Shown here: in pieces, positions 1-17,524 of the stretch
Layout of the letters: the number at the start of each line of letters is the position of its first letter
Position numbering within the stretch: position 1 is the first letter of the stretch
From: a virus
Lineage: Duplodnaviria > Caudoviricetes
IMG/VR virus record: IMGVR_UViG_3300020351_000002
Span: 1-52,558 of that record
DNA: 52,558 nucleotides
Reading direction: 5' to 3' (one strand)
The notes under the pieces: generated by a model
Database searches by the model: none
The model's input: the letters and a program-made list of their open reading frames with translations, nothing else
What the model was told of the DNA's origin: nothing
Program-made: the position numbers and the translations under genes

Positions 1-42
1 CCAAACTCCCCTGCATCCGTACCATTAGGACACCCCCACGGC

Positions 43-64
43 TTTCAACCTTTAAACGTTGAAA
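43..64. repeat. 22-bp palindromic repeat, copy 1 (TTTCAACCTTTAAACGTTGAAA)
   Basis: Read directly. A degenerate copy follows at 70-90 and overlaps the -35 box. Confidence 0.9.
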
Positions 65-84
65 CATTCTTTCAACTTTAAGAC

Positions 85-114
85 TTGACAGATAGAAATT
101 GCTCGGGATATAAA
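85..114 (+). promoter_or_regulatory. sigma70-type early promoter
   Basis: TTGACA (85-90), N18, TATAAA (109-114), upstream of an AAGGAG RBS and ATG 164. Confidence 0.7.
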
Positions 115-163
115 GGGTTTAACTTAAACAGGCCGAGGGGCCACCACAAAAGGAGCACAGGCA

Positions 164-1159
164 ATGGCACGTAAGAGTAAAAAGACTACCAGCAAGGCGC
201 GTACTTCATCGATTACCAGCAAGCCAAAGAATAAGACAAAGCAGATTAGGGCTACGGGCGTTCGCGGCGATGCTATCGCGAAGGGACAGGACCACGGGAC
301 GGCGATCACGGAGTTTCAGGCGATTGTGAACGGCGCTACCGCTGGCTTTCTATCTCAGGAAAGATTTGCGGACTCCGGACTGCGATCCATTGATATGAGC
401 TACGGCGCTGGATTGACTGGCAAGGGTACAGGCTTCAAGACCTTGACTACGAGGGAGGATAATCAGCCCTTGCACGTAGCAAGTTACACGATCTCCAGTG
501 TGCGCCATGATGACGGCAATTATCAGGCCACAGGAAGGCACCATTTGGCAGGGATCTGCTCAGACACTGGTAGCCCTACCGCGCAAGCAATCGCAGCCAG
601 TCTCCAGGCTTCAGTCTCAATGCGCTCTAGCATGAAGAGAGCCCGCGACCATGTTGCGAAGCTTGAGCGGCAAGGGAAGGTCAAGGCCACCAACAATGAA
701 GACCGTGAACAGGCTATCAGGGCGCGTGGTTCGTTCGTGCCTAACTCTGCTTTTGGCAAGGGTCTTATCCCTAGTTATGGGGCTGTCATGCTTGAACCAG
801 GACCAAAGCGCACCACAGGCAGCAACACCGTCTCCTATCCCCTGCCTACACTGAGCAAGGAGGGGCTCGAATACTTCGCAGACGCTATCAAGGCAGGTGA
901 CGCGATCATGCGACCTATTCAGCCCTGTTACGCGCCAAATAAAAAGCAAGCGCCAAAGACTGCTAGCAAGGCAATGCTTGCCCTGGGTCTGGACTGCGAA
1001 GGAGCGCGCCTTAGAGAGTTCCGCGCATCTATCGGCCTTGAAGGCAAGGGCTCAGCTACTAAGCACGCTCGACAGTGTCTAGCAGCGCTCGTAACGGCTG
1101 GACTGCTAGCACCCGACATGATCGGGGAAGTAGCAGCAGCTAGCGCGAAAGCCTCCTAG
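164..1159 (+). CDS. hypothetical basic protein, first early gene (331 aa)
   Basis: Long ORF with AAAGGAG RBS and K/R/S/T-rich N-terminus; no family recognised. Confidence 0.85.
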   Translation: MARKSKKTTSKARTSSITSKPKNKTKQIRATGVRGDAIAKGQDHGTAITEFQAIVNGATAGFLSQERFADSGLRSIDMSYGAGLTGKGTGFKTLTTREDNQPLHVASYTISSVRHDDGNYQATGRHHLAGICSDTGSPTAQAIAASLQASVSMRSSMKRARDHVAKLERQGKVKATNNEDREQAIRARGSFVPNSAFGKGLIPSYGAVMLEPGPKRTTGSNTVSYPLPTLSKEGLEYFADAIKAGDAIMRPIQPCYAPNKKQAPKTASKAMLALGLDCEGARLREFRASIGLEGKGSATKHARQCLAALVTAGLLAPDMIGEVAAASAKAS

Positions 1160-1160
1160 C

Positions 1161-1254
1161 AGGGGAGCGTCCTAGCAGGCTGCGCGCTCCTTGCGCGTGG
1201 CCTTGCTAGGTGCTGTTCAGTGCTCTGTCTTACAGGGTAGTGATTAGCACCTAG
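1161..1254 (+). promoter_or_regulatory. overlapping hairpins after gene 1 (terminator, attenuator or processing site)
   Basis: CCTAGCAGGC...GCCTTGCTAGG (1171-1210) and CTAGGTGCT...AGCACCTAG (1206-1254); no U-tract. Confidence 0.5.
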
Positions 1255-1266
1255 TCAATCGTCAAT

Positions 1267-1288
1267 CTTCAATCTTTAAAGGTTGAAA
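1267..1288. repeat. 22-bp palindromic repeat, copy 2 (CTTCAATCTTTAAAGGTTGAAA)
   Basis: Read directly; precedes RBS and ATG 1308. Confidence 0.95.
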
Positions 1289-1307
1289 CATTCAAAGGAG
1301 TGAAGAC

Positions 1308-1523
1308 ATGGAAGTAGCAATAAGCAACCTGAGCAGGGCAACGACTACCTATATAGCGTCCTGCGAGGAAGATTGCAGGGACAAGACGGACCTAGCCGTA
1401 TACCGGCTGTGCGTAGAGCATGACGACACCGTTGTGATGGGCCGATGTATCGGAACACCTATGCGAATCGTTGAAGACATGCGAGACACTGAGCGCAAGC
1501 GAATAGCCGAGATGGGGGGATGA
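1308..1523 (+). CDS. hypothetical protein
   Basis: AAAGGAG RBS; tightly packed with the next gene. Confidence 0.75.
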   Translation: MEVAISNLSRATTTYIASCEEDCRDKTDLAVYRLCVEHDDTVVMGRCIGTPMRIVEDMRDTERKRIAEMGG

Positions 1524-1524
1524 C

Positions 1525-1884
1525 ATGACCGAGGACAACGACAGATACATAGTCACCATATACGGAGACGGGGATTGCATTACGCGATTCGCTAAGTACG
1601 GCAGGCAAGGGCACATCGAAGCCATTGAGTCGGTGGATTGGGAGGTACATAACAAGCATGCAAGGCGTGCGACCGTAGAGCGAGAGCTACCAGGGGGCGA
1701 GCTAAAGATGGTCTACGAGCGGGAGCAGGACACCTATGAGGTGACCGGGGTAGACCGATCCGGCAGGCGATTTAAGCAAGCATATAAAAGCAAGTTTTTC
1801 GCTATGGGAGTCAACCTATGGCGAGGCAGCGTATGGCATGTGCGAGACGGGAAGCGAAAGCTGATCAAGCGAGTAACCAACTAA
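1525..1884 (+). CDS. hypothetical phage protein
   Basis: Coupled to the previous gene; stop lies 5 nt before repeat copy 3. Confidence 0.8.
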   Translation: MTEDNDRYIVTIYGDGDCITRFAKYGRQGHIEAIESVDWEVHNKHARRATVERELPGGELKMVYEREQDTYEVTGVDRSGRRFKQAYKSKFFAMGVNLWRGSVWHVRDGKRKLIKRVTN

Positions 1885-1889
1885 CAACC

Positions 1890-1911
1890 TTTCAACCTTT
1901 AAAAGTTGAAA
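1890..1911. repeat. 22-bp palindromic repeat, copy 3 (TTTCAACCTTTAAAAGTTGAAA)
   Basis: Read directly. Confidence 0.95.
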
Positions 1912-1929
1912 GCCAAAGGAGGAGAGAAA

Positions 1930-2172
1930 ATGGAAGGCTTACCAGTTTGGATCGTGGCCTATGGCGAAGCATATCAAGGGTACACGGTCGCCCCAGAAAT
2001 ACCTGCTCGCACTAGTTACATAGCGCAACAGATAGCAGCGCGAGAGTATGCAGAGGAAAGTCTTATATGGGGAGATGAAGTTATGACGCGGGAAGATCGC
2101 GAGGATGGATCGGTAATGTGGTCAAAGGGCTGTGATCGCGTCTACCTGCTTCCCTTGCGAGTGGAGATCTAA
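1930..2172 (+). CDS. hypothetical protein
   Basis: AAGGAGGAG RBS supports ATG 1930 rather than the TTG inside the repeat. Confidence 0.8.
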   Translation: MEGLPVWIVAYGEAYQGYTVAPEIPARTSYIAQQIAAREYAEESLIWGDEVMTREDREDGSVMWSKGCDRVYLLPLRVEI

Positions 2173-2174
2173 AG

Positions 2175-2196
2175 TTTCAACTTTTAAAAGTTGAAA
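2175..2196. repeat. 22-bp palindromic repeat, copy 4 (perfect: TTTCAACTTTTAAAAGTTGAAA)
   Basis: Perfect inverted repeat 2 nt after a stop codon. Confidence 0.95.
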
Positions 2197-2219
2197 GCTG
2201 GCAGGGAAGGGGAAATCCA

Positions 2220-2402
2220 ATGCCAATTTGGAATGAAGAGAGGCTAGATCCTGGCATCGATCTACGCCGCCAAAATGCGACGATTAGAGCACGGCTAAGC
2301 CGACAACGGATTACAGATCCACAGCCGATATGTGAAGCAAACGAGTCACCGCGAATCAACACGGTGATCGATTCTCAATCTTTAAAAGTTGAAAGGGAGT
2401 AG
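2220..2402 (+). CDS. short hypothetical protein or gene remnant reading through repeat copy 5
   Basis: GGAAGGGG RBS; the C-terminal SQSLKVERE is encoded by the repeat and the next RBS. Confidence 0.5.
   Translation: MPIWNEERLDPGIDLRRQNATIRARLSRQRITDPQPICEANESPRINTVIDSQSLKVERE
2373..2394. repeat. 22-bp palindromic repeat, copy 5 (TCTCAATCTTTAAAAGTTGAAA)
   Basis: Read directly. Confidence 0.95.
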
Positions 2403-2406
2403 AAAA

Positions 2407-2808
2407 ATGACACGCACGAAAAGGATAAAGGTCGTCAGAGATATGGCCCAGCGCATCCGATATGTCTGCGACACGCAAAGCATCTATCGTTTTCGCGACA
2501 TCGAAAGCACCATCAGGAAGCAAGAGCGCCAACACCGCAAGGGCTACGGGGCCAGTGGATACCGGGAGCCAGTCGCCGTCGCCGTCGATTACTTCATTGT
2601 TCGCTGCTTTGCCGACGCATTCCGGGTGGTGCGAGATACCGAAACGGCGCGGGATGTGCTGGATAATCTCGGTGTTCGTCTTGATTACCTGATGGCGATC
2701 TCCGTGGTCGCTCAATATGAAGCCGAGATCACCTCCTCTGTCCACGTTGGCGACCTAATGGAAGCCGCAGACACCCTCGACTATTCAGACGACATCGCGC
2801 GCAGATAG
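2407..2808 (+). CDS. hypothetical protein
   Basis: GGGAG RBS directly after the repeat; ATG 2407. Confidence 0.8.
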   Translation: MTRTKRIKVVRDMAQRIRYVCDTQSIYRFRDIESTIRKQERQHRKGYGASGYREPVAVAVDYFIVRCFADAFRVVRDTETARDVLDNLGVRLDYLMAISVVAQYEAEITSSVHVGDLMEAADTLDYSDDIARR

Positions 2809-2819
2809 CGGCGATGAAC

Positions 2820-2841
2820 TCTCAACCTTTAAAGATTGAAA
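2820..2841. repeat. 22-bp palindromic repeat, copy 6 (TCTCAACCTTTAAAGATTGAAA)
   Basis: Read directly. Confidence 0.95.
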
Positions 2842-2853
2842 AGGAGCAACGGC

Positions 2854-3081
2854 ATGACTGAAGCACAACTCACCTCAATTAAGAGGCTCGTCTCTACTTA
2901 CAACTCAACCTTAGAGCACACCAGTGTCCTGCATGACATAGACGGTACCGGGATTATGGGCCTACCACCTGGATGGATCCTTGTGAACGTGTGCCGAACC
3001 GAGGTTGGCAAGCAGCCACACCAATGCAATTCGATAATCGTACAGGCTGGCATCGCTCCCGATGGCAGCGTCTCAACCTAA
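2854..3081 (+). CDS. hypothetical protein
   Basis: AAGGAG RBS abutting the repeat; ATG 2854. Confidence 0.8.
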   Translation: MTEAQLTSIKRLVSTYNSTLEHTSVLHDIDGTGIMGLPPGWILVNVCRTEVGKQPHQCNSIIVQAGIAPDGSVST

Positions 3082-3088
3082 CAATAAT

Positions 3089-3102
3089 TCTCAACCTTTA
3101 AA
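3089..3102. repeat. left part of a split repeat copy (TCTCAACCTTTAAA)
   Basis: Right arm is absent here; a matching right arm GATTGAAA lies at 3474-3481. Confidence 0.8.
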
Positions 3103-3279
3103 AAGTCGGGCCTGTCAGTCTCTCACGAGGCGGGCGGCACGGTTCGTATATTCACGCCAAAGATGTCTAAGTTTGATGTCGTTGCCGGATGGAGCGACTG
3201 CAAGGGCGGGCGATTCGTTGTCAGGGAGACAACGAAGTCCGCGTAACTGCCCAGCGATGGGCAATGGAAGGAGAGAGAG

Positions 3280-3489
3280 ATGACCATTAGTCAAGTTGAT
3301 CGAAGCACTGTGAAGATGCTCCTTGATGAGGCGGAGGAGGCTCTGGGCCGAATCGCCATGAGGCACGGCATCGTCGTGTCTAGGAAGCACTGCACATACT
3401 CCAAGACCGAGGTCCCCGTGGCTTTCAAGTTCGTCATCCCTGAGAGGGCCGAGGACGGAACGGCTATCGACCCGATTGAAAAGGAGTGA
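3280..3489 (+). CDS. hypothetical phage protein, probably C-terminally truncated
   Basis: AGGAGAGAGAG RBS; last codons (IEKE*) come from the repeat right arm and the next RBS. Confidence 0.7.
   Translation: MTISQVDRSTVKMLLDEAEEALGRIAMRHGIVVSRKHCTYSKTEVPVAFKFVIPERAEDGTAIDPIEKE
3474..3481. repeat. right part of the split repeat copy (GATTGAAA)
   Basis: 3474-3500 matches 2834-2860 (copy 6 arm plus RBS/start) at 24/27 nt. Confidence 0.75.
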
Positions 3490-3493
3490 AGGC

Positions 3494-3784
3494 ATGACTG
3501 GATACGCATGGGTGATCACAAGGGACCGTATTGATGGCGGCATGGAAAATGGAACGGTCGGATCATGGAAAGCGGCGCTAAGTGCTGCCGAGATCCGTTC
3601 GAGCGAAGGCGGTGAGCGGTTCTCGATGTACGACGACGACGGGAACTGTTGCTACGAGGGGATCTTTGTAGGCGACGACGATGCCACCGGGTTCGAGCCT
3701 CTCAAAGACTTCGGGATACCGAACGCGGGGTGCACAGAAATACGCTACCGCAACCCGAACACCGGGAAGATGGAGCGTCTCTAA
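3494..3784 (+). CDS. hypothetical phage protein
   Basis: AAGGAG RBS, ATG 3494; YDDDG..YEG and GCTEIRY motifs typical of small phage early proteins. Confidence 0.8.
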   Translation: MTGYAWVITRDRIDGGMENGTVGSWKAALSAAEIRSSEGGERFSMYDDDGNCCYEGIFVGDDDATGFEPLKDFGIPNAGCTEIRYRNPNTGKMERL

Positions 3785-3785
3785 A

Positions 3786-3807
3786 ACTCAACCTTTAAAG
3801 ATTGAAA
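3786..3807. repeat. 22-bp palindromic repeat, copy 7 (ACTCAACCTTTAAAGATTGAAA)
   Basis: 1 nt after a stop codon. Confidence 0.95.
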
Positions 3808-3814
3808 AGAAGAC

Positions 3815-4129
3815 ATGAATAACGAACACAAGCCTAAGCCACGGCGCTCGCCGTGGAGAATCCATCGCCTTGAAAAAGGCTTTGAGATCTTTTGGAGAGA
3901 CGACGGCGATGGGGTCGAGTCTTACACTTACGTCGCAACAGCCCGCCAACACAGCAACGCCAGACGCATAGCCGCTGCGCCTGAAATGCTGGCTGTATTG
4001 GTGGCGGCGCGGGCAAGCATCTCCGACGCCCTGAGCCCAGACCCGTCGACAGACTGGAGAGACAGCCTAACCGACGCACTAGACGCAATTAACGCAACCA
4101 TTAACGACGCAACCAAGGAGGAAGCATGA
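3815..4129 (+). CDS. hypothetical phage protein (NARxIAAAPE-type motif)
   Basis: NARRIAAAPEMLAVL motif is common in phage early hypothetical proteins. Confidence 0.8.
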   Translation: MNNEHKPKPRRSPWRIHRLEKGFEIFWRDDGDGVESYTYVATARQHSNARRIAAAPEMLAVLVAARASISDALSPDPSTDWRDSLTDALDAINATINDATKEEA

Positions 4130-4623
4130 ACTTCGCAACATACCTACCCATACCACCAGACCTTCTAGAGCTTCCCAAAGCCACGGCGATTCGTGGCTGG
4201 ATAGGGCTAGACCACCGACTGCTAGATGGCACACGGATCAGACCGAGAATTAGGACAGCCGTGAACGCTATCGCATGGGCGCAGGCTGGGGGCACGGCCC
4301 CTATGGTTGTCCAGGAAGGCTACGTCACACGCAAGGAAGGCGAGACGACTCACACAGCAGAAGAGTTTGTGGAGCAATACCGTCGATCACGCGAAGAGAT
4401 AGACATTCTGATCTACGAGGTACGAACTGCCGCGGGAGCAAGTATAGGCATACCCGTAGCAAAGGACGCAGCCGACAGCGAAGAGGGCAGGATAGAGCTT
4501 GTCATGTCGATGATTGACAAAAACCTGCTCATTGAACTGGGATTAACGATCACTCTCCTCAGAGAGGAGCGCGGCCCGCGATACAGGGCAAAAAACTTTC
4601 AATCTTTAAAGGTTGAAAGCTAA
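4126..4623 (+). CDS. hypothetical protein reading through repeat copy 8
   Basis: ATGA overlap and AAGGAGG RBS; C-terminal FQSLKVES is encoded by the repeat. Confidence 0.75.
   Translation: MNFATYLPIPPDLLELPKATAIRGWIGLDHRLLDGTRIRPRIRTAVNAIAWAQAGGTAPMVVQEGYVTRKEGETTHTAEEFVEQYRRSREEIDILIYEVRTAAGASIGIPVAKDAADSEEGRIELVMSMIDKNLLIELGLTITLLREERGPRYRAKNFQSLKVES
4597..4618. repeat. 22-bp palindromic repeat, copy 8 (TTTCAATCTTTAAAGGTTGAAA)
   Basis: Read directly. Confidence 0.95.
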
Positions 4624-4644
4624 AAGCACCTTGCACATGTCAGG

Positions 4645-4673
4645 TTGACAGCCTGCAATCTATAGAGTAAGGT
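4645..4673 (+). promoter_or_regulatory. sigma70-type promoter
   Basis: TTGACA (4645-4650), N17, TAAGGT (4668-4673); the -35 lies in a small TGTCA-N3-TGACA dyad. Confidence 0.65.
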
Positions 4674-4702
4674 ATACACTCAACGTCAAGGAAGGGGTTC
4701 CA

Positions 4703-5542
4703 ATGACACCAATAACAAACAAGGGCGTTCGCTCTGTAATTGTCTGGCTCGGTTTTGATCCAGACAGTGACGATTTAATAGACAGCCTCCGATACACCAA
4801 GAGCGGAAGGCTCAGGCGGCTGTTTGGCAAGAACTTCAAGTGTGAGATGGGGGAATTGCAGGCTGTACTGACTGCGGTATTACACCTGTCGCCATGGAAA
4901 GAGGCTGGCTTCAATACCTGCGCCTTTGCTGGGGCATGTGCCGAGGTCTGCATCAAGACGACCGGACAGTGCGTGACAAACACGGCGCTTCGCTCTCGCA
5001 TCTGTAAGACGCTCTACTTCTTTCTATTCCGAGAGGAGTTTCTCGATCAGTTGCGGATGGAGATTCGCCAGCACATTTACATGGCGAAGATCAAGGGCAT
5101 GCGAGCAGCTATCAGGCTGAACGCTACGAGCGACATTCTATGGGAGCGCACGGGGATCATCGATGAGTTCCCAGAGGTGCAGTTTTACGACTACACGAAG
5201 ATCCCTTTAGAGAAGCGCAACCCACCACCTAACTACCACCTGACGTTCAGCCTAAGCGAGGACCCGAAGTCTATGGGTAGGGCCTTGTCGTATCTGGAGG
5301 CGGGACACAACGCCGCGATGGTAGTGCAGACGCTTGACGGGATGAAGAGGGGCGACGCCAAGAGGGCATCCCAAAGTCTTGTGGAGGCTGGCTCATGGAA
5401 CGGATACCCAACCTTCTCTGGTGATAACAACGACATCAGGTTTTGGGATCCACCGGGAAGCTGGATTGTCCTGTACGCCAAGGGACCGGCGACAAAGGAC
5501 ACCTCTGGGTTTGTTCAACGCCTACCAATTATCAACCTTTAA
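4703..5542 (+). CDS. GP88-like phage protein (Cys-cluster, radical-SAM-like)
   Basis: NTCAFAGACAEVC, RLNATSD, QFYDYTK and NYHLTFS motifs characteristic of the phage GP88 family. Confidence 0.8.
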   Translation: MTPITNKGVRSVIVWLGFDPDSDDLIDSLRYTKSGRLRRLFGKNFKCEMGELQAVLTAVLHLSPWKEAGFNTCAFAGACAEVCIKTTGQCVTNTALRSRICKTLYFFLFREEFLDQLRMEIRQHIYMAKIKGMRAAIRLNATSDILWERTGIIDEFPEVQFYDYTKIPLEKRNPPPNYHLTFSLSEDPKSMGRALSYLEAGHNAAMVVQTLDGMKRGDAKRASQSLVEAGSWNGYPTFSGDNNDIRFWDPPGSWIVLYAKGPATKDTSGFVQRLPIINL

Positions 5543-5551
5543 AGATTGAAA
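5530..5551. repeat. 22-bp palindromic repeat, copy 9 (TATCAACCTTTAAAGATTGAAA)
   Basis: Its central TAA is the stop codon of the GP88-like gene. Confidence 0.95.
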
Positions 5552-5566
5552 CCAGAAGGAGGAAGC

Positions 5567-5740
5567 ATGAGTGAAGACGAATACATTTACATAAGCGTAA
5601 AGCTCTACCTCAAGGCAGGGCAAACGATGGAGTCTGTCCAAGAGATCGTGCAGGAAATGGACTACTCGTTTGCTCACAAGGAGTTGGTTGAGCATGAAAT
5701 CATAGAGATAACGGACACATCCATAGAGGGGGAAGTATGA
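5567..5740 (+). CDS. hypothetical acidic protein
   Basis: AAGGAGG RBS, ATG 5567. Confidence 0.75.
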   Translation: MSEDEYIYISVKLYLKAGQTMESVQEIVQEMDYSFAHKELVEHEIIEITDTSIEGEV

Positions 5741-6015
5741 GCAACATAAGGAGAATGTTCGAACTTTCCACCGTGCATGTTCCGGGGCCCGATCCCGACT
5801 GGGGCGACCTGAAGGTCAAGGACCATGAGTATGGGTGGGTCGTCTGGGTCTACGACCCCGACGACAACCTGTCGCCTGAATGGATGAAGCCGATCATGAA
5901 GTTGGCCTACAGCAAGAACTGCGCCCTCATCTTGTTCGACTCTGACGCTGGCGAGTGGGAGGACACCGAACTGCACAGCCTAACGCAGTTCCAAGATCTC
6001 TGGGAGGAAGTATGA
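5737..6015 (+). CDS. hypothetical protein, DUF5983-like
   Basis: LSTVH, EYGWVVW and ILFDSDA motifs; ATGA overlap. Confidence 0.6.
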   Translation: MSNIRRMFELSTVHVPGPDPDWGDLKVKDHEYGWVVWVYDPDDNLSPEWMKPIMKLAYSKNCALILFDSDAGEWEDTELHSLTQFQDLWEEV

Positions 6016-6272
6016 GCAATCTATCCCCTGACTGGGGGAACTACTACGGCACCTGCATGGACTGCGGAGGGAGGTACCACGCTAGTGGTACGGAGCATTG
6101 CAACTGCGAAGAGTGTGAGAGATGTGAGGGAATCACAGCACCTGACGACCTGGACGAAGGGACCTGTCTTGGGTGCTGGGAAATGGGAGATGTGTGCTGC
6201 CCTGTCTGCAAGGAGTGGACGTTTAAAGAGCACCTTGAAGATGGGGCTTGCCCCGACTGTGTAACCCATTAA
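6012..6272 (+). CDS. Cys-rich putative zinc-binding protein
   Basis: Several CxxC pairs; GGAGG RBS; ATGA overlap. Confidence 0.75.
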   Translation: MSNLSPDWGNYYGTCMDCGGRYHASGTEHCNCEECERCEGITAPDDLDEGTCLGCWEMGDVCCPVCKEWTFKEHLEDGACPDCVTH

Positions 6273-6277
6273 CAGAC

Positions 6278-6299
6278 CTTCAACCTTTAGAGATTGAAG
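6278..6299. repeat. 22-bp palindromic repeat, copy 10 (CTTCAACCTTTAGAGATTGAAG)
   Basis: Slightly degenerate; 5 nt after a stop codon. Confidence 0.9.
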
Positions 6300-6320
6300 G
6301 CGTAGAAAGGAGAGGAAGGC

Positions 6321-6647
6321 ATGGCCGCTGTGGACAATGAATATATAAGCGCTCGAATTGCCGAGATAAGCGTCAGAGAGAAGGTCTCTGGCCTTAAAAA
6401 AACTATTGAAAGAGAAACCAAAAGAATAGAGGAGGCTGCACAGGTCGTTGATATGCAAATACAACAGCTATTAGAGGATATGAAGGGGGGCGACCCTTGT
6501 TCCGCTAACAGCTGGGGAGAGCCAGGTTTTAGGGCAATGCGTCAGGAACTAGACAGGCTTTATGGAAAAGTAAACTTTTACTCCGGGATGATGATGTCCC
6601 TAAGTCTGGTGAGCAACCACATAGACGTTCATTGGAAGGGGTTTTGA
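6321..6647 (+). CDS. hypothetical coiled-coil protein
   Basis: AAGGAGAGG RBS; helical heptad pattern. Confidence 0.8.
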   Translation: MAAVDNEYISARIAEISVREKVSGLKKTIERETKRIEEAAQVVDMQIQQLLEDMKGGDPCSANSWGEPGFRAMRQELDRLYGKVNFYSGMMMSLSLVSNHIDVHWKGF

Positions 6648-6648
6648 T

Positions 6649-6867
6649 ATGGGTCCAATATCAATGAGTCTAGTAACAGCAAAAAGGATTGAGACATTTC
6701 TAAGCTGGCACCTTGAGGCTGGTACTCCAGAGTTTATGAGGCCCGAAAAGGTTGATAGGGAGTCCGCAAAGAACCTTCTTATTACGATAAGAGAGGCTCT
6801 TAGGGAGCTGGATGAGAACGAGTCTCTGTGGATCGAGATTGGTGTTGGTCCAGAGGGGGCTGGGTAA
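6649..6867 (+). CDS. hypothetical protein
   Basis: Tightly packed in the operon. Confidence 0.7.
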   Translation: MGPISMSLVTAKRIETFLSWHLEAGTPEFMRPEKVDRESAKNLLITIREALRELDENESLWIEIGVGPEGAG

Positions 6868-7034
6868 TGGATTACTGCAACATTACCGAAGTTGAAGAGT
6901 GCGATCAGTGCGACCGAGCCAGCAGTGGCCGAGAGTATGGATTCAAGTGCGAAGCCAATCAGTGCGGGAACTGTGGCGACACCTACCGGGACTGCGAAGG
7001 CTCTTGCAACAACGGCTGCTCAGGGGCTTCCTAA
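6867..7034 (+). CDS. small Cys-rich protein
   Basis: TAATG stop/start coupling at 6865-6869; multiple Cys. Confidence 0.6.
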   Translation: MDYCNITEVEECDQCDRASSGREYGFKCEANQCGNCGDTYRDCEGSCNNGCSGAS

Positions 7035-7043
7035 ACAGAGAGG

Positions 7044-7253
7044 ATGGACAGCGGCATGACAGTTATAGAGCTGGCTGCGTACAGGAAAGCAAAGTACGGG
7101 GACACAGAGGAACGGGATGAGGGTGTGATCTACAAATGGACTTGTTGCGTATGCAAGTGCTTTGCCTACAAACTGCTTGAGGACATCCCAAAAAAGTGTC
7201 CCGTCTGCAGGAGTTATATAGACCAGATAGAGGTTTATGAAGGAGATGAGTGA
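7044..7253 (+). CDS. rubredoxin-like zinc-ribbon protein
   Basis: WTCCVC...KCPVC pattern. Confidence 0.65.
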   Translation: MDSGMTVIELAAYRKAKYGDTEERDEGVIYKWTCCVCKCFAYKLLEDIPKKCPVCRSYIDQIEVYEGDE

Positions 7254-7624
7254 TGCCAGGAAAACTACTGAAGACAGAAGAAGAAGAGGCTGCTTTCGTT
7301 AAGGACTACGAAAAGCTGGTGTCCGTCAAAGACCTTGCTAAGAAGTGGGGGTGTACTCGACAAACAGCGAGCGCATCACTTAAGAGGCTTGGTGTTAAGG
7401 TCCAAAGGCCGCGAGGGAAGGATGCCAATGGCCGAAACTGGAAGGGCGACTACCACCCAATGCTTGGCAAGTGGCCAGACTCTTTGGTCGCAAAGGACAT
7501 ATTGCTAAGGACTGGTAAGAAGGTTTCCAGAGCGGCTGTTTGTCAGGCTAGAAAGCGAAGAGGGATCAAGGCACTGTCAGAAGCACAGCATGAAGCCATG
7601 AAGGCCCGGATAGACGGGGGCTAG
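7250..7624 (+). CDS. putative double-HTH DNA-binding protein
   Basis: SVKDLAKKWGCTRQTASASLKRLG and LGKWPDSLVAK...VSRAAVCQARKRRGI HTH-like segments. Confidence 0.7.
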   Translation: MMPGKLLKTEEEEAAFVKDYEKLVSVKDLAKKWGCTRQTASASLKRLGVKVQRPRGKDANGRNWKGDYHPMLGKWPDSLVAKDILLRTGKKVSRAAVCQARKRRGIKALSEAQHEAMKARIDGG

Positions 7625-7641
7625 ACAGCGAGACCCTCTCA

Positions 7642-7914
7642 GGCTAGTTTCAACCTGTCGCCAAGACGAGGTCTTACCCAAGACCCTCATGGCCTCAAAG
7701 CAGCGTCCACCTGGGCCTTCTCCCCCCTTCCTCCGGGTGGGCGCTCTTTGAAGGCGATACCCCGCAAAGCAAAGCCCCCCATGGCTAAAACCAAGGAGGG
7801 CTTGCCGGTGCCTGCCAACAGTGTGGCGAACCACAAAGGTTCAAATGGCTGGAACCATGCAACAAAGCAGGGGACTCGCAAGAAAACCTGCTTGGTGCGT
7901 AGTAGAAACTAGCC
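7642..7914 (+). ncRNA. candidate structured ncRNA A (~273 nt), class unknown
   Basis: Perfect closing helix GGCTAGTTTC (7642-7651)/GAAACTAGCC (7905-7914) enclosing several hairpins; G-U pairs favour the + strand. Confidence 0.6.
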
Positions 7915-7921
7915 AAAAGCA

Positions 7922-7951
7922 TTGACGAGGGCAAGGTAGTGAGCGTAGCCT
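7922..7951 (+). promoter_or_regulatory. possible promoter between ncRNA A and B
   Basis: TTGACG, N18, TAGCCT. Confidence 0.35.
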
Positions 7952-7984
7952 CGCATCACTGCTCCACCAAAGAGCAGCCATAAT

Positions 7985-8263
7985 TTTCCGTCGTGTGGCC
8001 CCTGTTCAAAGGGCGAAACTGGCGGAGAAAGGACGCGCAAGAGGAGCCCTGCTCCGAGTTTGAACCCACCAGAACACAAGGTCTTATCAAGGCTTATGGC
8101 TTCGACAAAGAAGTCGCAAGGTCAACAGGTAACAACGCACCCCCGCCTGTTAAGTGCTCTGAGGGAAAGACCGCCTATCTAAAAGTGACCAGGATAGGAA
8201 TGGTTGAAACGCGCAGTCCAAAGGTGACCCAACCTAGCAAGGGTCACAGGATGGGGGTGCGTT
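7985..8263 (+). ncRNA. candidate pseudoknotted ncRNA B (~280 nt), class unknown
   Basis: Loop AACGCACCCCC (8134-8144) is perfectly complementary to GGGGGTGCGTT (8253-8263); many local stems. Confidence 0.55.
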
Positions 8264-8284
8264 TGGGGGGTAAGAGTTGGTCGT

Positions 8285-8313
8285 TTGACCTTTGAAACAG
8301 GTCTCTATATTAT
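8285..8313 (+). promoter_or_regulatory. sigma70-type promoter for the recombination module
   Basis: TTGACC (8285-8290), N17, TATTAT (8308-8313). Confidence 0.7.
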
Positions 8314-8427
8314 TGATTTTGTCAGTGTCTTACTGGCGTTGGGGCGTTAGTTATTTAAGGCGGGACAGTTGTTGTCCTGTCCGCAACCAATGATGGCGAT
8401 TGTCATCATTTTTTAGGAGAGAGAGAT

Positions 8428-9423
8428 ATGCCTGCTTATTTTGAAACTGGAATGTACGTTGGTGCCACCCCCTGGCACGGTCTTGGAACCTATGTTGGTG
8501 AAGAGGGTCTTAGGACGAAGGGTGCTTTAAAAAGAGGGGACCTCCTCTGGACTGTGAGCAAGCGGCCTTTGTTTACGGTACCGGAGGGCGGTGCCCTTGC
8601 GGCAGCGTCCATGCCGTCTGTCTGCCTGGAGGACTACCGGGCAATCATGCGGGACACCGACAACTCTGCATATGGGATTGTGAAGAAGGACTACACGCTC
8701 TTCCAGAACGAAGAGATGGGTGCCTTCGCAGACGATCTTATTGACGACGGCAGCCTGCGTATCCACACCGCTGGGTCGCTTAACGGTGGTCGTCAGGTGT
8801 GGTTGCTTGGCAAGGTTGGGTCTACCGAGATCATCCCCAAGGACAAGGTAGACCACTACCTCTTCTTGTATACGGGGCACGATGGGTCTACAGCCTTCCG
8901 CTGCATGTTCACAACGGTGCGTGTGGTTTGTGCAAACACGGCTGCTGTTGCACTGCGGAACTCTCGCGGGCAAAGCGTCAGCATTCGGCACACGAAGAAC
9001 ATGTCGCTTAAGTCTGGCGAGGCTGCTCGTGTCCTGGGCATTTCTCAGAAGGCATTTGCTGAGTCGGATGAGTTCATGCGAAAGCTTGCCGATGTTCCGA
9101 TGCCTCAGTCTGACTGGATTGATTTCTGCATGGAGCTATTCCCCACCCCGGTGGCAGACGAGGACGGCAATGTAAGCAAGCGTGCCATGTCTATCTCGGA
9201 GAACAACCGAAGCCAGCTGACGCGCCTGTTTGTTGGTGGTCGAGGTACTGAGATCCCAGGGGTTCGCGGAACTGGCTGGGCTGCATACAACGCACTAACT
9301 GAGTTCGCTGGCTATCACCGCACATCTCGCGGTGGCAAGGGCAAGCGCTTTGAGTCTCTGATGATGGGCTCTGGTGCGAAGTTCGTTCAGAACGGTACGA
9401 ACATCCTTCGCGGACTCGTTTAG
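8428..9423 (+). CDS. DUF932 family phage/plasmid-like protein (TIGR03299-like)
   Basis: PWHGLG, TAGSLNGGRQVW, HDGS, VRVVCANT, IRHT and GTGWAAYNALTE motifs. Confidence 0.9.
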   Translation: MPAYFETGMYVGATPWHGLGTYVGEEGLRTKGALKRGDLLWTVSKRPLFTVPEGGALAAASMPSVCLEDYRAIMRDTDNSAYGIVKKDYTLFQNEEMGAFADDLIDDGSLRIHTAGSLNGGRQVWLLGKVGSTEIIPKDKVDHYLFLYTGHDGSTAFRCMFTTVRVVCANTAAVALRNSRGQSVSIRHTKNMSLKSGEAARVLGISQKAFAESDEFMRKLADVPMPQSDWIDFCMELFPTPVADEDGNVSKRAMSISENNRSQLTRLFVGGRGTEIPGVRGTGWAAYNALTEFAGYHRTSRGGKGKRFESLMMGSGAKFVQNGTNILRGLV

Positions 9424-9424
9424 T

Positions 9425-9446
9425 TCTCAACTTTTAAAGGTTGAAA
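9425..9446. repeat. 22-bp palindromic repeat, copy 11 (TCTCAACTTTTAAAGGTTGAAA)
   Basis: 1 nt after the DUF932 stop and before the nuclease RBS. Confidence 0.95.
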
Positions 9447-9458
9447 AAGGGAGGGTTC

Positions 9459-10370
9459 ATGGAACTGCTAACGCAGACAGAGCTAGTCACGTTCAGCCGA
9501 TGTGAAGAGCGCCATAACATTCGCTACAACAGGCGGCTTACTCCCTTTGAGGAGCATCCAGCCTTGGCGATGGGAAGCGCTGTCCACGAAGGGCTTGAGC
9601 ATGGCTCAGTGAAAGCTGCGTTAGCGGTCATGGACGCCTCTGGAGACAGTGAATGGCCTGGATCGAGCGCGTCTGACAGGGTGCGCCGGTCCCAGGTCGC
9701 AGCCATGGTCGGAGGCGCTTTAGAGCGGTGGTCCTGCTGGCCTGACAAACACGAGGTTCAGTTTGAGATACCTCTCAGGCACCCGGACACAGACGTTCAT
9801 AGCGCAGAGCACAGGCTTAGCGGTGTGTTTGATGGTGTCTGGGAGGGGACCTACCCAGGGATGCCTGGAGAGTGGGTGTTGGGGGAGTGGAAGACTGCAT
9901 CCATTGTAAATAGGGACTATATCGCCCGTCTTGAGATCGACTTTCAGGTAACCACTTACTTGTACGCAGCGAGCGTCCTGTACCAGAGACCTGTTAGGAA
10001 GATGGTCTATCGGGTGATTAAAAAGCCAACGATTAGGCAGAAGAAGACAGAGAGTGCGAACGACTATGCAGAGCGCGTCCGCTTGGACTATCTGGAGAGA
10101 CCAGAGCACTACTTCTTTGATCAGGTAGTGACGCGAACAGATGCCCAGTTAATCGAGTGGAAGCGCCAAGCATGGGCCACGCACAGGAGAATACTTGAGA
10201 TTCAGAGAGGCGAGGCTGTGGCCATAAGGTCTACACAGTCCTGTCTGAGCAGAGGACGGTGCCCATACTTTGATCTTTGTACTGGTTCCGTCATAGAGAG
10301 CGCCTACCGGCGACTAAACACAAAGCACAGAGAGATTAAGAAGGAGAATAACAATGGGAATGATTCCTAA
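9459..10370 (+). CDS. PD-(D/E)XK exonuclease, AddB/Cas4-like (probable Fe-S cluster)
   Basis: FSRC, GSAVH, GVFDG, EWKT, QVTTY and C-terminal CxxxxxCPYFDLC; GGGAGG RBS. Confidence 0.85.
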   Translation: MELLTQTELVTFSRCEERHNIRYNRRLTPFEEHPALAMGSAVHEGLEHGSVKAALAVMDASGDSEWPGSSASDRVRRSQVAAMVGGALERWSCWPDKHEVQFEIPLRHPDTDVHSAEHRLSGVFDGVWEGTYPGMPGEWVLGEWKTASIVNRDYIARLEIDFQVTTYLYAASVLYQRPVRKMVYRVIKKPTIRQKKTESANDYAERVRLDYLERPEHYFFDQVVTRTDAQLIEWKRQAWATHRRILEIQRGEAVAIRSTQSCLSRGRCPYFDLCTGSVIESAYRRLNTKHREIKKENNNGNDS

Positions 10371-11088
10371 AGAGCCGACTCCGCCAAGCACTAGGATGGC
10401 GGATTATTCCTGGCTCTTCTACGGCAACGTAGGAGTTGGGAAGACAACATTGGCAAACCAGTTTCCTAGTCCAATATTTGTTGCAACGGAGCAGGGGACA
10501 ACGGCAATGCACGCTGCGTCTATTCCAGTGGGAAGCTGGGAAGACCTTAAGCTTGTGCTTGAGGCTCTCAGGACAGAGAAGCACGCTTACAAAACCGTCA
10601 TCCTTGACACCGTTGATGTGGCCTACGCGCTCTGTTCCACATATGTGTGCGAGGCAAACGGGTGGACCGATGTTTCCGATGGGGATTTTGGCCTGGGCTG
10701 GCGAGCGCTTGGGAGGGAGTGGACGAACATGATCGCCAAGTTAAGAACGCTGCCCATGTGTACGGTGTTTATCGGCCATGAGAAGTCTGAAGAAATTGTT
10801 GAACGAATTGGATCGAAGAACATGGCGACCGGGCGACAGAGGATTACTTCAGCGCTGCCCAGAAGCGCTAGGGCGACCTTGCACGCGGCCATGGACTTCA
10901 TTCTTCGCTGTGAGCTGACAGAGGATAACGAAAGGATCCTAAGGACTCAGCCAATCGAGAACAAGAGAGAGCGAATTGAGGTTAAGGCCCGTGGACACGA
11001 AGGGGCAATGCTTCCAGAGGTGGTGGAGATGAGCTTCACCTCTTTACAGGGGGCTTTTAAGAACAGCTTTGTTAAGGAGCAAAAATGA
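10354..11088 (+). CDS. AAA_24 / Sak4-like recombinase ATPase
   Basis: Walker A GNVGVGKT, Walker B VILDT, FIGHE; sits between a nuclease and an SSB. Confidence 0.85.
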   Translation: MGMIPKEPTPPSTRMADYSWLFYGNVGVGKTTLANQFPSPIFVATEQGTTAMHAASIPVGSWEDLKLVLEALRTEKHAYKTVILDTVDVAYALCSTYVCEANGWTDVSDGDFGLGWRALGREWTNMIAKLRTLPMCTVFIGHEKSEEIVERIGSKNMATGRQRITSALPRSARATLHAAMDFILRCELTEDNERILRTQPIENKRERIEVKARGHEGAMLPEVVEMSFTSLQGAFKNSFVKEQK

Positions 11089-11603
11089 CTACTGAAATCG
11101 AAGACATCTTCAACAACATCTCCCCCCCCGAAGAAGCTGATGGTGGGTCTAGAAAAAAGCGCCGAAAGGACGACGCGGATAAGATCCCAGACGGGGTCTA
11201 TCAAGCAAAGATTGTCGAGTTCTCAACCTTCCACAAAGACGACGATTACGGTAACCGGGACTACTTTACGGTCATGTGGTTTCAAGTAACGACTGGGCCA
11301 GCTGCGGGTGCAGAGGTTCAAAGCTTTTCATCCGTAGGCCCAAAGTCAGTACCGTTTATCAAGAGAGCCATTAAAAAGGTTACTGGTAAGGAGCCGTCCT
11401 GGTCTGATCTCTACGACAAGGAAATGGGATCGACTGGAAGCATTCAGTTCAAGCTTGTTGGAAAGCATGTTGAGATCCAGCAAAAGACCAATGGTAAGTA
11501 CGCGAACATCTACATAAACAAAGTCATCGACAGTTCGGGCGAACAAGGCTCAGCCTCGCCAGCAAACGACGACAGTGACAGGAATGTAGACGATTTATTC
11601 TAG
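11085..11603 (+). CDS. single-stranded DNA-binding protein (DUF669-like)
   Basis: IPDGVYQAKI motif, acidic C-terminal tail ending DDLF, position after the Sak4-like gene. Confidence 0.75.
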   Translation: MTTEIEDIFNNISPPEEADGGSRKKRRKDDADKIPDGVYQAKIVEFSTFHKDDDYGNRDYFTVMWFQVTTGPAAGAEVQSFSSVGPKSVPFIKRAIKKVTGKEPSWSDLYDKEMGSTGSIQFKLVGKHVEIQQKTNGKYANIYINKVIDSSGEQGSASPANDDSDRNVDDLF

Positions 11604-11607
11604 GAAT

Positions 11608-11846
11608 CAGCGCACGCTCCTTCCAAAGGCCCGTAGCTTCTGTGCGCTGTACCCACGACATGCCAAGTATGTCTTGAAGAAGTTCAGGTCTATGCCTGCC
11701 GGGGTCGAGCTAGGACTCGACAGGGTTAACGGACACCTGCTTAGAAGGTGGTCAAACCGGCATCTTCATTTCCGTAGAGGGGGTTGGGTATTTACTTCTT
11801 TCTACCAACTCCCTTGCAGTCACCCGCACAGGGAGGCACAGCGGGC
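11608..11846 (+). ncRNA. candidate structured intergenic RNA C / leader
   Basis: Consecutive stems: CAGCGCAC/GTGCGCTG, GACATGC/GTATGTC, GTCGAG/CTCGAC, CACCT/AGGTG, AGGGGGTTGG/CCAACTCCCT, CCCGC/GCGGG. Confidence 0.4.
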
Positions 11847-11890
11847 GGAAGCATCAGGTGCCTCAACTAACAACCAACCAGGAGAGAAAC

Positions 11891-12421
11891 ATGAAGACGG
11901 TTGACCCAAAGGATTACCGCTCCCTTTCAATGTGGGCGATTGATCTTGTTAGAAACAACCCATCGATGACAGCAGAGGGCTTTGATGACGAGTGTCAGAG
12001 GTGGGGAGTTGTTTGTGGCAGAGGTCCTTTTTACAAAGGCGTAAAGGCATACAGGGAAGAGCATGGGCTTGGAGCGCTTCCTCGCGGCGGGAAGCTGACT
12101 GGCAAGGCCCCGAAGCCAGCGAACTACCAGAGCGAAGGACAAGATGTCTTAGGCGGAACGACTAGAGGCCCAGAGAGGAGGCTTGTTAGGGGTGGGGCTG
12201 TTGCTGTTGAACAAAGTTCCAACGAGCTGGTCTCCAGGAAAGACAGGCTTATCCTTTCCGAGATCAATGAACACGCCGCCAGAATGATTGCCTGGATGAG
12301 GAAGTACAATGTAAGGGTTATCACCATGGAGTCGGAGAGCCAAGAGGTAACCCTCTCTAACGAGCCGTCCGTCAGTCGTCAGATTGTCCCCTCTCCACAC
12401 TTCACAGTCCAGAAGAAGTAG
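11891..12421 (+). CDS. hypothetical protein
   Basis: AGGAGAG RBS, ATG 11891. Confidence 0.8.
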   Translation: MKTVDPKDYRSLSMWAIDLVRNNPSMTAEGFDDECQRWGVVCGRGPFYKGVKAYREEHGLGALPRGGKLTGKAPKPANYQSEGQDVLGGTTRGPERRLVRGGAVAVEQSSNELVSRKDRLILSEINEHAARMIAWMRKYNVRVITMESESQEVTLSNEPSVSRQIVPSPHFTVQKK

Positions 12422-13003
12422 GTGGTCAAAGTGCAAAACGAAGGAGAGCTTCTTGCCAATCCAGGCCCCGTGGAGGCCGATGTCCACTGCGACAGAACCC
12501 TGGAAAGACCAAAAGGCCGGTCCTTGCGACAGGCAAGGGAGGACCTTATGGCTAACATCGACAAAGGGGTTGTGTGCCCCTGCTGTGGGCAGCTGGCCAA
12601 GGTCTACAAAAGAAAACTCAATAAGAAGATGGCCGAGTGGCTTGTCTGGCTTGTGGGTAAATACCTACACAGTACCGGGCACATACCCTCCAACTGGATA
12701 GACGTTAAAGAAAGCCGGGTTAGAGGAGGAGATTACGCGAAGCTAGCTCTTTGGGGTCTCGCGAAGAGGAAGCCCGTCGAAGAGGGGGCTAAGTCAAGAA
12801 CCTCTGGCCTATGGAAGCCAACCCCAATTGGAATCGACTTTGCCATTGGCAGAAGACGGGCCCCGTCACACCTGTTCGTCTTCAACAACTCTGTTGTGGG
12901 CGAGTCAGAAACCACCATCTCAATAAAAGAGGCTATGGGAGAGGGGTTTGACTATCAGGACGTTTACTACTGGAGCAGCGGGGAGGACATAAGAACGCCA
13001 TGA
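12422..13003 (+). CDS. hypothetical protein with CPCCG zinc knuckle, possible winged-helix DNA-binding protein
   Basis: CPCCGQ..KVYKR and SGLWKPT motifs; start uncertain. Confidence 0.75.
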   Translation: MVKVQNEGELLANPGPVEADVHCDRTLERPKGRSLRQAREDLMANIDKGVVCPCCGQLAKVYKRKLNKKMAEWLVWLVGKYLHSTGHIPSNWIDVKESRVRGGDYAKLALWGLAKRKPVEEGAKSRTSGLWKPTPIGIDFAIGRRRAPSHLFVFNNSVVGESETTISIKEAMGEGFDYQDVYYWSSGEDIRTP

Positions 13004-13209
13004 AGCATAAGCATAAATACGGCCCGTGGAAGCTCTACAAGCCGTGGGATAAGAGGAAAATGGGCGACAAGGAGTTTGTCGCCAGTCAGAGGATGCCGCC
13101 GTTTTGGTACCAGTCTTGTGAGTGCGGCTTTGAAAACTGGATAAGGAAAGAGTCTAAGCCCAAGGCGAGCTTCAAGTTCATGGCGCACTGGGGGTCAAGG
13201 TCTCTCTAG
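13000..13209 (+). CDS. small basic hypothetical protein
   Basis: ATGA overlap; last gene before the strand switch. Confidence 0.65.
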   Translation: MKHKHKYGPWKLYKPWDKRKMGDKEFVASQRMPPFWYQSCECGFENWIRKESKPKASFKFMAHWGSRSL

Positions 13210-13211
13210 AC

Positions 13212-13568
13212 CTATGAGATGAACAGGGTTGCGTCTACGTCTGCCCCTGGGTCTCCGGTATTGTCTGACGAAGTCGCGGCCTGAACCGTAAACGCAACGT
13301 CAAAGGTTGCCCCAATGTCTATGTAAACAACCATTGTGGTGGTGGCGGCAATCGGAATCATAATGTCTGCCGCGTTTGCGGTAAACGATCCAGAGTTCTC
13401 AAGGGCCATGTATCTAGTTGCCCCGGCACCATTTACCAACCGCATGGCGTAAAGACTTCCAGTGGTCCCAGTAACCCCGGTCAGACCAGCCAAAGGAACC
13501 TCTTCAACCTTCACAATTGTTGACTGAAAGTTTGTTGCGTAAGGGGTTACGTTAATTGAGGTGGCCAT
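13212..13568 (-). CDS. putative virion structural protein (paralog of 13577-13951)
   Basis: Beta-rich T/A/G composition; GSLYAM matches GTLYAV in the neighbour. Confidence 0.75.
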   Translation of the reverse strand: MATSINVTPYATNFQSTIVKVEEVPLAGLTGVTGTTGSLYAMRLVNGAGATRYMALENSGSFTANAADIMIPIAATTTMVVYIDIGATFDVAFTVQAATSSDNTGDPGADVDATLFIS

Positions 13569-13576
13569 GTCTGCTC

Positions 13577-13951
13577 CTAATCAAGGATTCTCATAGTAAC
13601 GGTTCCAGAGGGAGTGGCAGTGCCACCCTCTCCACCCTGCGTAACAGCTACGACAGTAATTCCTGCAGAAATCGTAATCCCAACGTCAAAGGTGTATTGA
13701 ATCTTCTTTGAACCTGGGCACATTAGGATCATGGTCGGAGTGGTTGTGCCAACAGTGACCGCCCCAGCAGTGTCGTACATCTTGAAGTAAGTGGTAGCGG
13801 TGTTGAGAGTGTTGTCCACCTCAACCGCATACAGGGTGCCCGCACCGGAAGAAGCAAGCTCCGCATCAGCAACCCCGTCCTTGAAGGGCTGCGTTACAAC
13901 GTGAACAGCGGTTCCTACCGCTGAAGGGATATTTGACTGAACTACGGCCAT
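13577..13951 (-). CDS. putative virion structural protein
   Basis: Beta-rich; YFKMYD..VTVGTTTP motif. Confidence 0.75.
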   Translation of the reverse strand: MAVVQSNIPSAVGTAVHVVTQPFKDGVADAELASSGAGTLYAVEVDNTLNTATTYFKMYDTAGAVTVGTTTPTMILMCPGSKKIQYTFDVGITISAGITVVAVTQGGEGGTATPSGTVTMRILD

Positions 13952-13953
13952 GT

Positions 13954-16185: not shown

Positions 16186-16187
16186 TA

Positions 16188-17521: not shown

Positions 17522-17524
17522 GTC

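Follow-up and report, generated by a model that had tools for sequence, protein, structure and literature searches.

A palindrome copy split by a truncated two-gene unit

The DNA analysed here, called the window throughout, is the whole of IMG/VR virus record IMGVR_UViG_3300020351_000002 (52,558 bp; completeness estimate 97%), and our subject is one copy of a short palindrome that recurs just upstream of early genes in this phage. Between two small cassette genes this copy is interrupted, its left half and its right arm standing on either side of an insert (Table 1). An earlier note, made from the letters alone, had reported the two halves, and its strings and coordinates proved exact on re-checking. 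As it had claimed, the joined halves reproduce an intact copy elsewhere in the array, copy 6, at all 22 positions, and the stretch 3474-3500 matches the downstream flank of copy 6 (2834-2860) at 24 of 27 nucleotides (nt). That 27-mer is found nowhere else in the window, on either strand, at 19 of 27 or better. On the + strand the left 12-mer TCAAYYTTTAAA is found at 11 places, ten of them within full copies, and only the one at 3091 has no right arm. The bare 8-mer RRTTGAAA is weak alone, with three more + strand occurrences outside the copies, so the significance of the right half rests on its downstream flank.

The insert is a two-gene unit cut off at both ends. Its first gene, gene A, survives as a 3' remnant with neither a start codon nor a ribosome-binding site, and an in-frame TAA lies at 3085-3087; the alignment of the remnant with its homologue has 15 invariant columns and 44% identity. 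The native spacer between the two genes follows. Positions 3103-3279 had been described as a structured leader, a description that we do not uphold: the segment folds no better than shuffled sequences (z = -1.44) and consists of the gene A remnant and the spacer.

The second gene, gene B, is likewise incomplete. The 69-residue open reading frame (ORF) noticed earlier is real, and its last codons do come from the repeat arm and the next ribosome-binding site, IEKE and the stop codon being read from both. Its homologues extend beyond the DGTAIDP segment at which the window version departs, the protein of about 137 residues continuing in 4 of 4 related contigs. A library-wide search with the full-length protein (L004 3001-3414) gave 3620 representatives at E<=1e-3; the best 150 of these are all 120-264 residues long, most of them matching across about residues 1-133, and no natural short form of B was found among those 150. 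Five of the seven near-invariant columns of the family fall in the part lost from the window. The AlphaFold2 model of the protein (pLDDT 93.9) predicts two subdomains, and the break lies where the helix opening the second subdomain begins.

The gene B family is a large, mostly viral group of proteins of about 130 residues. The local copy of Pfam gave no match for 41 family members, and a profile search of the PDB reached E = 0.11 at best. Foldseek against the PDB returned nothing at E<=0.001, the C-terminal part giving weak matches to small barrels such as PsaE (E 0.15-0.9). Eight of the 41 members weakly matched phrog_497, annotated 'HicB-like'. In an Atlas feature search gene B scored 0.91-0.94 against clusters whose members have Y4mA_C in 58-93% of cases, a lead only; the names Y4mA_N and Y4mA_C (Pfam 38.1, PF27403/PF27402) were given for gene B by this Atlas search only. 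Near the insert ends, TCGGG (3106-3110) and CCCGA (3471-3475) form an inverted pair, exactly where the earlier note had placed it and allowed that it might be chance. The pair is incidental, since its letters are part of the genes as the donor-type phages natively encode them: all 4 donor contigs have GACCCGA, and 2 of the 4 have AAGTCGGG.

The intact unit and the empty site in other contigs

Genes A and B are intact in four contigs of another phage lineage. Three of them (L004, L005 and L006) were found in IMG/VR through homologues of the 69-residue ORF, at 86-87% protein identity, and the fourth (L030) through gene A. The best DNA match of the window to L004-L006, over positions 1-20000, begins at 3245 or 3260, has 88-89% identity and stops at 3475, exactly at the right junction. 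Other matches to these contigs were the GP88 gene (65%) and window positions 3883-4129 (75-82%), and window positions 20001-52558 gave no match to any of the four donor-type contigs. The palindrome occurs in none of the four, even at one mismatch. On this comparison of sequences the insert is foreign, its source being another phage lineage.

A scan of metagenome contigs with the motif followed by AAAAGGAG returned seven loci, all of them relatives with palindrome arrays. The earlier note had proposed a search for relatives with an empty, rejoined site, and these exist: L029, L027 and record 14 of run X17 all show the left flank, an intact palindrome and the spacer. L029 matches window positions 928-3102 at 99.86% identity over 2175 bp, and L027 matches 2820-3102 at 93%; both matches end exactly at 3102. 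The left flank, identical at 59 of 60 positions in L029 and 60 of 60 in L027, runs into an intact TCAACC-TTTAAA-GATTGA and then the spacer AAAGGAGTGAA, as in window 3474-3490, and the sequences diverge only beyond this point. Record 14 of X17, from a different study and year (depth 34), covers 2931-3102 with one difference and continues with 17 letters equal to 3474-3490; in this run the depth is zero over 3132-3436 and about 34 in the flanks. We take the X17 bridge as supporting evidence, not decisive alone. Relatives in which two complete motifs flank A-B, an arrangement that the earlier note had associated with independent decay, were not seen.

The last codons of the upstream gene hold a near-copy of the palindrome left arm, which is conserved in L027 and L029, and TCTCAACCT is present twice in this region, at 3071-3079 and 3089-3097, 18 bp apart. 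In IMG/VR, the downstream flanking gene gave one spurious 11-residue match and the upstream gene none.

Junctions and origin of the split copy

The left junction is blunt, with 0 nt of homology: the target ends in TTTAAA, the donor begins with AAGTCGGG, and no base can be assigned to both. At the right junction the donor ends in GACCCGA and the target resumes with GATTGAAA, so that 2 nt (GA) are common. The target has neither lost nor gained a base and carries no duplication. Both donor genes are interrupted, the break in gene A lying near codon 21 of its 71 and that in gene B following codon 65 of 137, as expected of an insertion scar. The polarity is that of insertion into an intact site and not of loss in the relatives, because there is no direct repeat that would allow precise excision. 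We conclude, with a probability of about 0.8, that the split palindrome is the scar of a recent illegitimate (non-homologous) capture, or replacement, of foreign DNA at this linker. The suggestion of the earlier note that foreign DNA entered the motif just right of TTTAAA is thus borne out by the truncated genes, the donor-type contigs and the empty sites. Its view that this is the best internal evidence that the sites are cut or recombined goes too far, as the split alone attests one break there and does not show cutting.

In such an event, a piece of about 371 bp from the other lineage would have been joined into an intact 22-bp palindrome between TTTAAA and GATTGAAA. The products would be a start-less pseudogene, A', and a chimeric ORF, B', that stops inside the Shine-Dalgarno region of the next gene; the ribosome-binding site of that gene is left intact. 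The physical route may have been the repair of a double-strand break by fragment capture, or a template switch during co-infection, and the recombination genes of the phage, an exonuclease/Sak4-like annealing module, may have been involved. Illegitimate recombination is a source of mosaic joints in phages, and phage annealing proteins carry out relaxed recombination. The present case resembles such events in its joint of 0-2 nt homology inside donor genes, its truncated remnants and the exonuclease and Sak4-like (AAA_24) protein that the phage encodes. Scars of this kind are usually inferred from gene-boundary mosaics, whereas in the present case donor type, empty site and product have each been seen, and the leftover junk is still in place.

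Either one palindrome copy would have been hit, giving a simple insertion, or two copies would have been broken at the same phase and the cassettes between them replaced. Replacement is as possible as simple insertion, because each relative carries a different gene behind the intact site: L029 has a paralogue of gene 1308 there and L027 an unrelated gene of 131 residues. The X17 homologue of gene 3494 (96% identical) is preceded by another intact palindrome variant and spacer. L029 (reverse complement, positions 342 and 2164) contains two paralogues of gene 1308, the second of which, behind the intact palindrome, is 89% identical to that of the window.

The position of the insert is no proof of targeting. 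Once rebuilt, the spacer measures 41 nt (3082-3102 plus 3474-3493) and offers about 30 viable insertion positions, meaning those at which both the upstream stop codon and the downstream Shine-Dalgarno region stay intact; 21 of these lie inside the 22-nt palindrome, so a random viable insertion would hit the motif about 70% of the time. Three specific breakage or crossover routes were considered and rejected. DraI recognises TTT^AAA and cuts it bluntly; the junction lies 3 nt right of the dyad and does not fit a cut of this type. A crossover at the AAGGAG hexamer common to donor and target would delete TTGAAA, which is present. Nucleases of the SbcCD type cleave at the edge of a hairpin loop, and the position of the junction would fit such breakage of a hairpin or cruciform, but a copy of this type forms no stable hairpin.

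Table 1. Features of the split palindrome and its surroundings (window coordinates).
Feature	Position	Strand	Remarks
Palindrome copy 6, TCTCAACC-TTTAAA-GATTGAAA	2820..2841	+	Intact reference; equals the joined halves at 22/22
Upstream cassette gene, 75 residues, no family	2854..3081	+	3' end is the left flank common to the empty-site relatives
Left half of split palindrome, TCTCAACCTTTAAA, through the TTTAAA core	3089..3102	+	BLAST matches of L027 and L029 stop at 3102
Insert of phage DNA, foreign by sequence comparison	3103..3473	+	371 bp (369-371 depending on the side to which the shared GA at 3474-3475 is assigned)
Gene A remnant	3103..3246	+	47 codons plus stop at 3244-3246; aligned from residue 21 of the 71-residue L004 protein
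Native A-B intergenic spacer	3247..3279	+	Carries gene B's own ribosome-binding site, GGAAGGAG
Chimeric ORF B', 69 residues	3280..3489	+	Residues 1-65 (3280-3474) from the family protein of about 137 residues, then IEKE-stop
Right arm of split palindrome, GATTGAAA	3474..3481	+	GA at 3474-3475 is a 2-nt microhomology with the donor
Downstream ribosome-binding site and spacer	3482..3493	+	Same behind the intact site of relatives up to ...GGAGTGAA
Downstream cassette gene, 96 residues, phrog_12268	3494..3784	+	

The palindrome array and its linkers

The 18-nt motif TCAAYY-TTTAAA-RRTTGA matches the window 11 times at up to 2 mismatches, compared with 0 in 100 shuffles. All 11 copies lie within 45-9444, each just upstream of a ribosome-binding site and the ATG of an early gene. 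We examined 46 intact copies in the window and the loci of the seven relatives, and no other half-copy was found among them. Little or no variation is seen in the outer TCAA/TTGA or in the TTTAAA core. Perfect symmetry, counted over the window copies at 45-9444 and loci L023-L029, is seen in 1 of 36 distinct site contexts (2 of the 46 copies), where 10.8 were expected when the right-arm dinucleotides were shuffled. Each of the two commonest forms at the variable positions, CC/GA (17 copies) and TC/GG (10), is the reverse complement of the other, so that together they represent one asymmetric site in two orientations. Like half-sites (ACC+ACC, ATC+ATC) are never paired in one palindrome.

A role of the motif in RNA structure was considered and rejected, because the variable positions introduce C.A mismatches now on one strand, now on the opposite one, and neither is consistently affected. 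Nine copies were folded, with energies of -1.2 to -10 kcal/mol and no T-run. Four of them (2370, 2817, 3783 and 5527) fold no better than shuffles (z -0.76 to +0.94), and the commonest class, including the type of the split copy, forms a hairpin of -1.2 to -2.4 kcal/mol, like shuffles. The most economical reading of these sequences is that the palindrome is a putative double-stranded protein-binding site with two unlike half-sites.

A promoter consensus scan of positions 1-10000 listed two promoter-like sites (8285 and 8807), neither at a palindrome. By eye, TTGACA-type hexamers (84-113 and 4643-4675) stand only after the copies at 45 and 4599 and are absent from the consensus scan list; that after the copy at 4599 is conserved in five relatives, and the other cassettes appear promoter-less. 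Most of the cassette genes could be assigned to no family. A search of IMG/VR with a 20-nt motif gave 14 loci with one site each (six of them with two overlapping palindrome reads) and no arrays, and the motif followed by a ribosome-binding site was found 0 times in IMG/VR and 0 times in prokaryote genomes, which gives no prophage or host clue.

The palindrome with its ribosome-binding site is the linker of a shuffled early-gene cassette array that resembles those of the promoter-early stem-loops (PeSLs) of T4-type phages. Across the loci of the seven relatives gene order and content differ, with small genes between the same linkers, and the 3' end of gene 2220 has four different genes behind it across six sites. 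The ends of internal BLAST matches lie within 30 nt of a palindrome in 21 of 37 cases against 14% expected, although these counts come from related contigs and not from independent events, which tells against our reading and makes the figure a trend and not a probability. The remaining 16 of the 37 cluster at a few gene boundaries that have no palindrome. Arm variants and spacer tend to change together among the relatives. The shuffling is most simply explained by homologous exchange anywhere in the linkers of about 20-40 bp, which the exonuclease/Sak4-like annealing module would serve.

The PeSLs have been described as intergenic units flanking gene cassettes, with homologous recombination between units proposed for their exchange and, in the parts of these accounts that deal with exchange, no dedicated recombinase (Arbiol et al. 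2010, PMC2839356; Comeau et al. 2014, PMC4122927). As in those accounts, the unit here is intergenic, ends in a Shine-Dalgarno sequence and the start codon of a small early gene of unknown function, and lies in a hyperplastic region where relatives differ by insertion, deletion or replacement of unit-flanked genes. The differences are equally clear. The consensus scan of 1-10000 put no sigma-70 early promoter at the palindromes, and no stable stem-loop or G+C-rich terminator hairpin is found in the palindrome, which is a 22-bp imperfect, AT-centred unit. The phage is a podovirus-like marine phage with an SU10-type portal and not a T4-type myovirus, and the split copy is a non-homologous joint with unit-less DNA, which PeSL exchange does not produce.

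A second parallel is found in the Cluster K mycobacteriophages, whose SAS repeat is a 13-bp asymmetric sequence with a Shine-Dalgarno core and whose ESAS has 17-bp arms around a 4-13-bp spacer (Pope et al. 2011, PMC3203893). Like the palindrome, these are described there as lineage-specific repeats a few bases upstream of the starts of non-structural genes, overlapping or abutting the ribosome-binding site. The ESAS is an imperfect inverted repeat in which, according to that description, mismatches argue against RNA pairing and favour a protein-binding site, the same argument as we make here. In contrast to the present array, the part of that paper describing SAS and ESAS contains no cassette-shuffling role and no split copy (PMC3203893).

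Alternative explanations

Several observations weigh against capture of foreign DNA as we have set it out. The closest donor-type contigs are 88-89% identical in gene B and only about 44% (protein) in gene A, and the true donor was not found. No relative that we found has gene 2854, an intact palindrome and gene 3494 together. On the right the X17 bridge extends for only 17 letters, under the 31-letter rule for a bridging record, and L029 is short, ending 102 nt past the site; a repeat of 22-25 nt could in principle mis-join assemblies. Finally, a perfectly conservative target is unusual for random end joining and could hint at a defined cut.

Such a cut might be made by an enzyme of the phage or its host that cleaves the palindrome at TTTAAA|RR, with cassettes shuffled by way of such cuts and the split being a mis-repair in which a stray foreign fragment was caught in a programmed break. 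The perfectly conserved target and the blunt left junction would agree with this, as would a strongly constrained motif whose half-sites combine non-randomly (1 of 36 symmetric, 10.8 expected) and the coincidence of cassette boundaries with the motif. Against it, only one of 47 copies (46 intact and this one) is split, and Pfam and PHROGs identified no site-specific enzyme in 66 ORFs, though many of these have no family. Arm variants change together with the spacer, as crossovers anywhere in the linker would have it, the palindrome fills about 21 of the 30 viable positions of the 41-nt spacer, and a hairpin of the split copy's type (-1.2 to -2.4 kcal/mol) is no more stable than shuffles. We regard site-specific cutting as unlikely. 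A more elaborate version would make the palindromes the recombination sites of a phage-borne, integron-like cassette system, in which an unrecognised protein binds the asymmetric half-sites and breaks TTTAAA|RR, and the split copy a side-product formed when a stray fragment of a co-infecting phage was ligated into the programmed break. Integrons rely on a tyrosine recombinase of the IntI type and on attC sites, which measure about 57-141 bp and contain paired core sites together with extrahelical bases. The array shares with them mostly promoterless small genes bounded by imperfect palindromic sites, in varying content and order. It differs in its site of 18-22 bp, in the lack of an IntI-type recombinase among the scanned ORFs and in the nature of the insert, which is not a cassette, as it lacks a site and has lost both ends. 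Taken as a whole, recombination sites and side-product together, this version seems to us unlikely.

Independent decay would start from a complete A-B cassette flanked by palindromes and invoke two separate deletions, one of the right arm and the start of A, the other of the end of B and the next left arm. Palindromes do normally flank cassettes in the array, and the donor-type lineage and the window have a few other early genes in common. The two deletion ends would, however, have had to fall at exactly complementary phases to rebuild a copy at 22 of 22 positions; the palindrome is present in 0 of 4 contigs carrying A-B, A or B in 0 of 7 palindrome-bearing loci of relatives, and a strain 99.86% identical up to the junction has an intact single site. 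We hold decay to be very unlikely, and give still less credit to the idea that the 371-bp segment is a small mobile element, such as a miniature transposon or homing cassette, that targets the palindrome. It did enter a repeated palindromic target without disrupting the neighbouring genes, and a 5-nt inverted pair lies near its ends, but that pair is native donor coding sequence and both ends lie inside ORFs of a two-gene unit found whole in other contigs. The target site is not duplicated, no transposase or nuclease is encoded, and the segment is single-copy, a query of 2800-3850 matching only itself apart from the palindromes. An assembly chimera, the insert having been mis-joined at a repeat of the kind that can confuse assemblers (22-25 nt), is close to negligible as an explanation, since contigs of other runs and studies cross the junctions independently, carrying the insert and with 0 differences: record 6 of X13 (3069-3295) at the left junction, and record 10 of X15 (3364-3577) and record 4 of X12 (3320-3528) at the right. 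The contigs of X12 leave 3085-3319 uncovered, and those of X13 and X15 have holes; a hole in contigs counts for nothing. At least 95% of sampled words of 2400-4200, a region of which the insert is about one fifth, are present in 11 runs from 3 studies, one of which may be the source sample.

Two further features of these runs concern neighbouring positions. A loose end of X12 at 3807 was considered as a rearrangement and rejected, being instead a cross-match between identical palindrome copies. A contig of X17 (depth 39), from a relative with 90-96% identity, skips 89 bases at 4007-4097, a stretch within gene 3815-4129 or at its end.

The source genome

The window is the near-complete genome of an uncultured marine phage with no close cultured relative, as judged from the marine runs, the lack of a DNA match in GenBank phages and a distant portal. 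The runs that hold the region are marine or seawater metagenomes, BLASTN of window 2000-6000 against GenBank phages gave no match, and the portal had a single match only, at 21.7% identity. The genome encodes an SU10/P22-type portal, an SU10-type adaptor, a major head protein and a large terminase, and a DnaB-type helicase and a Dam-type methyltransferase are also encoded. A PD-(D/E)XK exonuclease gene (9441-10370) adjoins that of the AAA_24/Sak4-like annealing protein (10354-11088). No integrase or recombinase family was found among 12 + 54 ORFs with Pfam or 16 + 10 ORFs with PHROGs, and the 66 ORFs scanned with the two contain no recognisable HUH, HNH or other site-specific enzyme, many of them being without a family. 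An Rfam scan of window 1-10000 gave no match.

On contig L026 (1224-1626) the last 82 bases of the window (52477-52558, 95% identical) and a stretch at its start (1-87, 84% identical) lie about 234 bp apart. The record thus represents a nearly complete genome, with its opening immediately upstream of palindrome copy 1. A minus-strand ORF at 19431-27155 encodes 2574 residues without a Pfam or PHROG match, and a neighbouring ORF of 849 residues is likewise unmatched.

Implications

The standard explanation of phage mosaicism is rare non-homologous joining followed by selection, and its evidence comes mainly from joints observed long after they formed. The split copy offers a clean case from nature, in which foreign DNA was captured illegitimately at one of the linkers of a PeSL-like array and three states can be seen in natural marine populations: the donor-type unit, the unbroken target and the product with both remnants. 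The chemistry of the junctions can be read directly, as one blunt joint and one with 2-nt microhomology, with no loss of the target. One linker copy can evidently be destroyed without killing the phage. In this unrelated, uncultured lineage, a palindrome and ribosome-binding site with neither promoter nor hairpin does the job of the PeSLs, one more case for the view that the early regions of phages generally contain cassette linkers.

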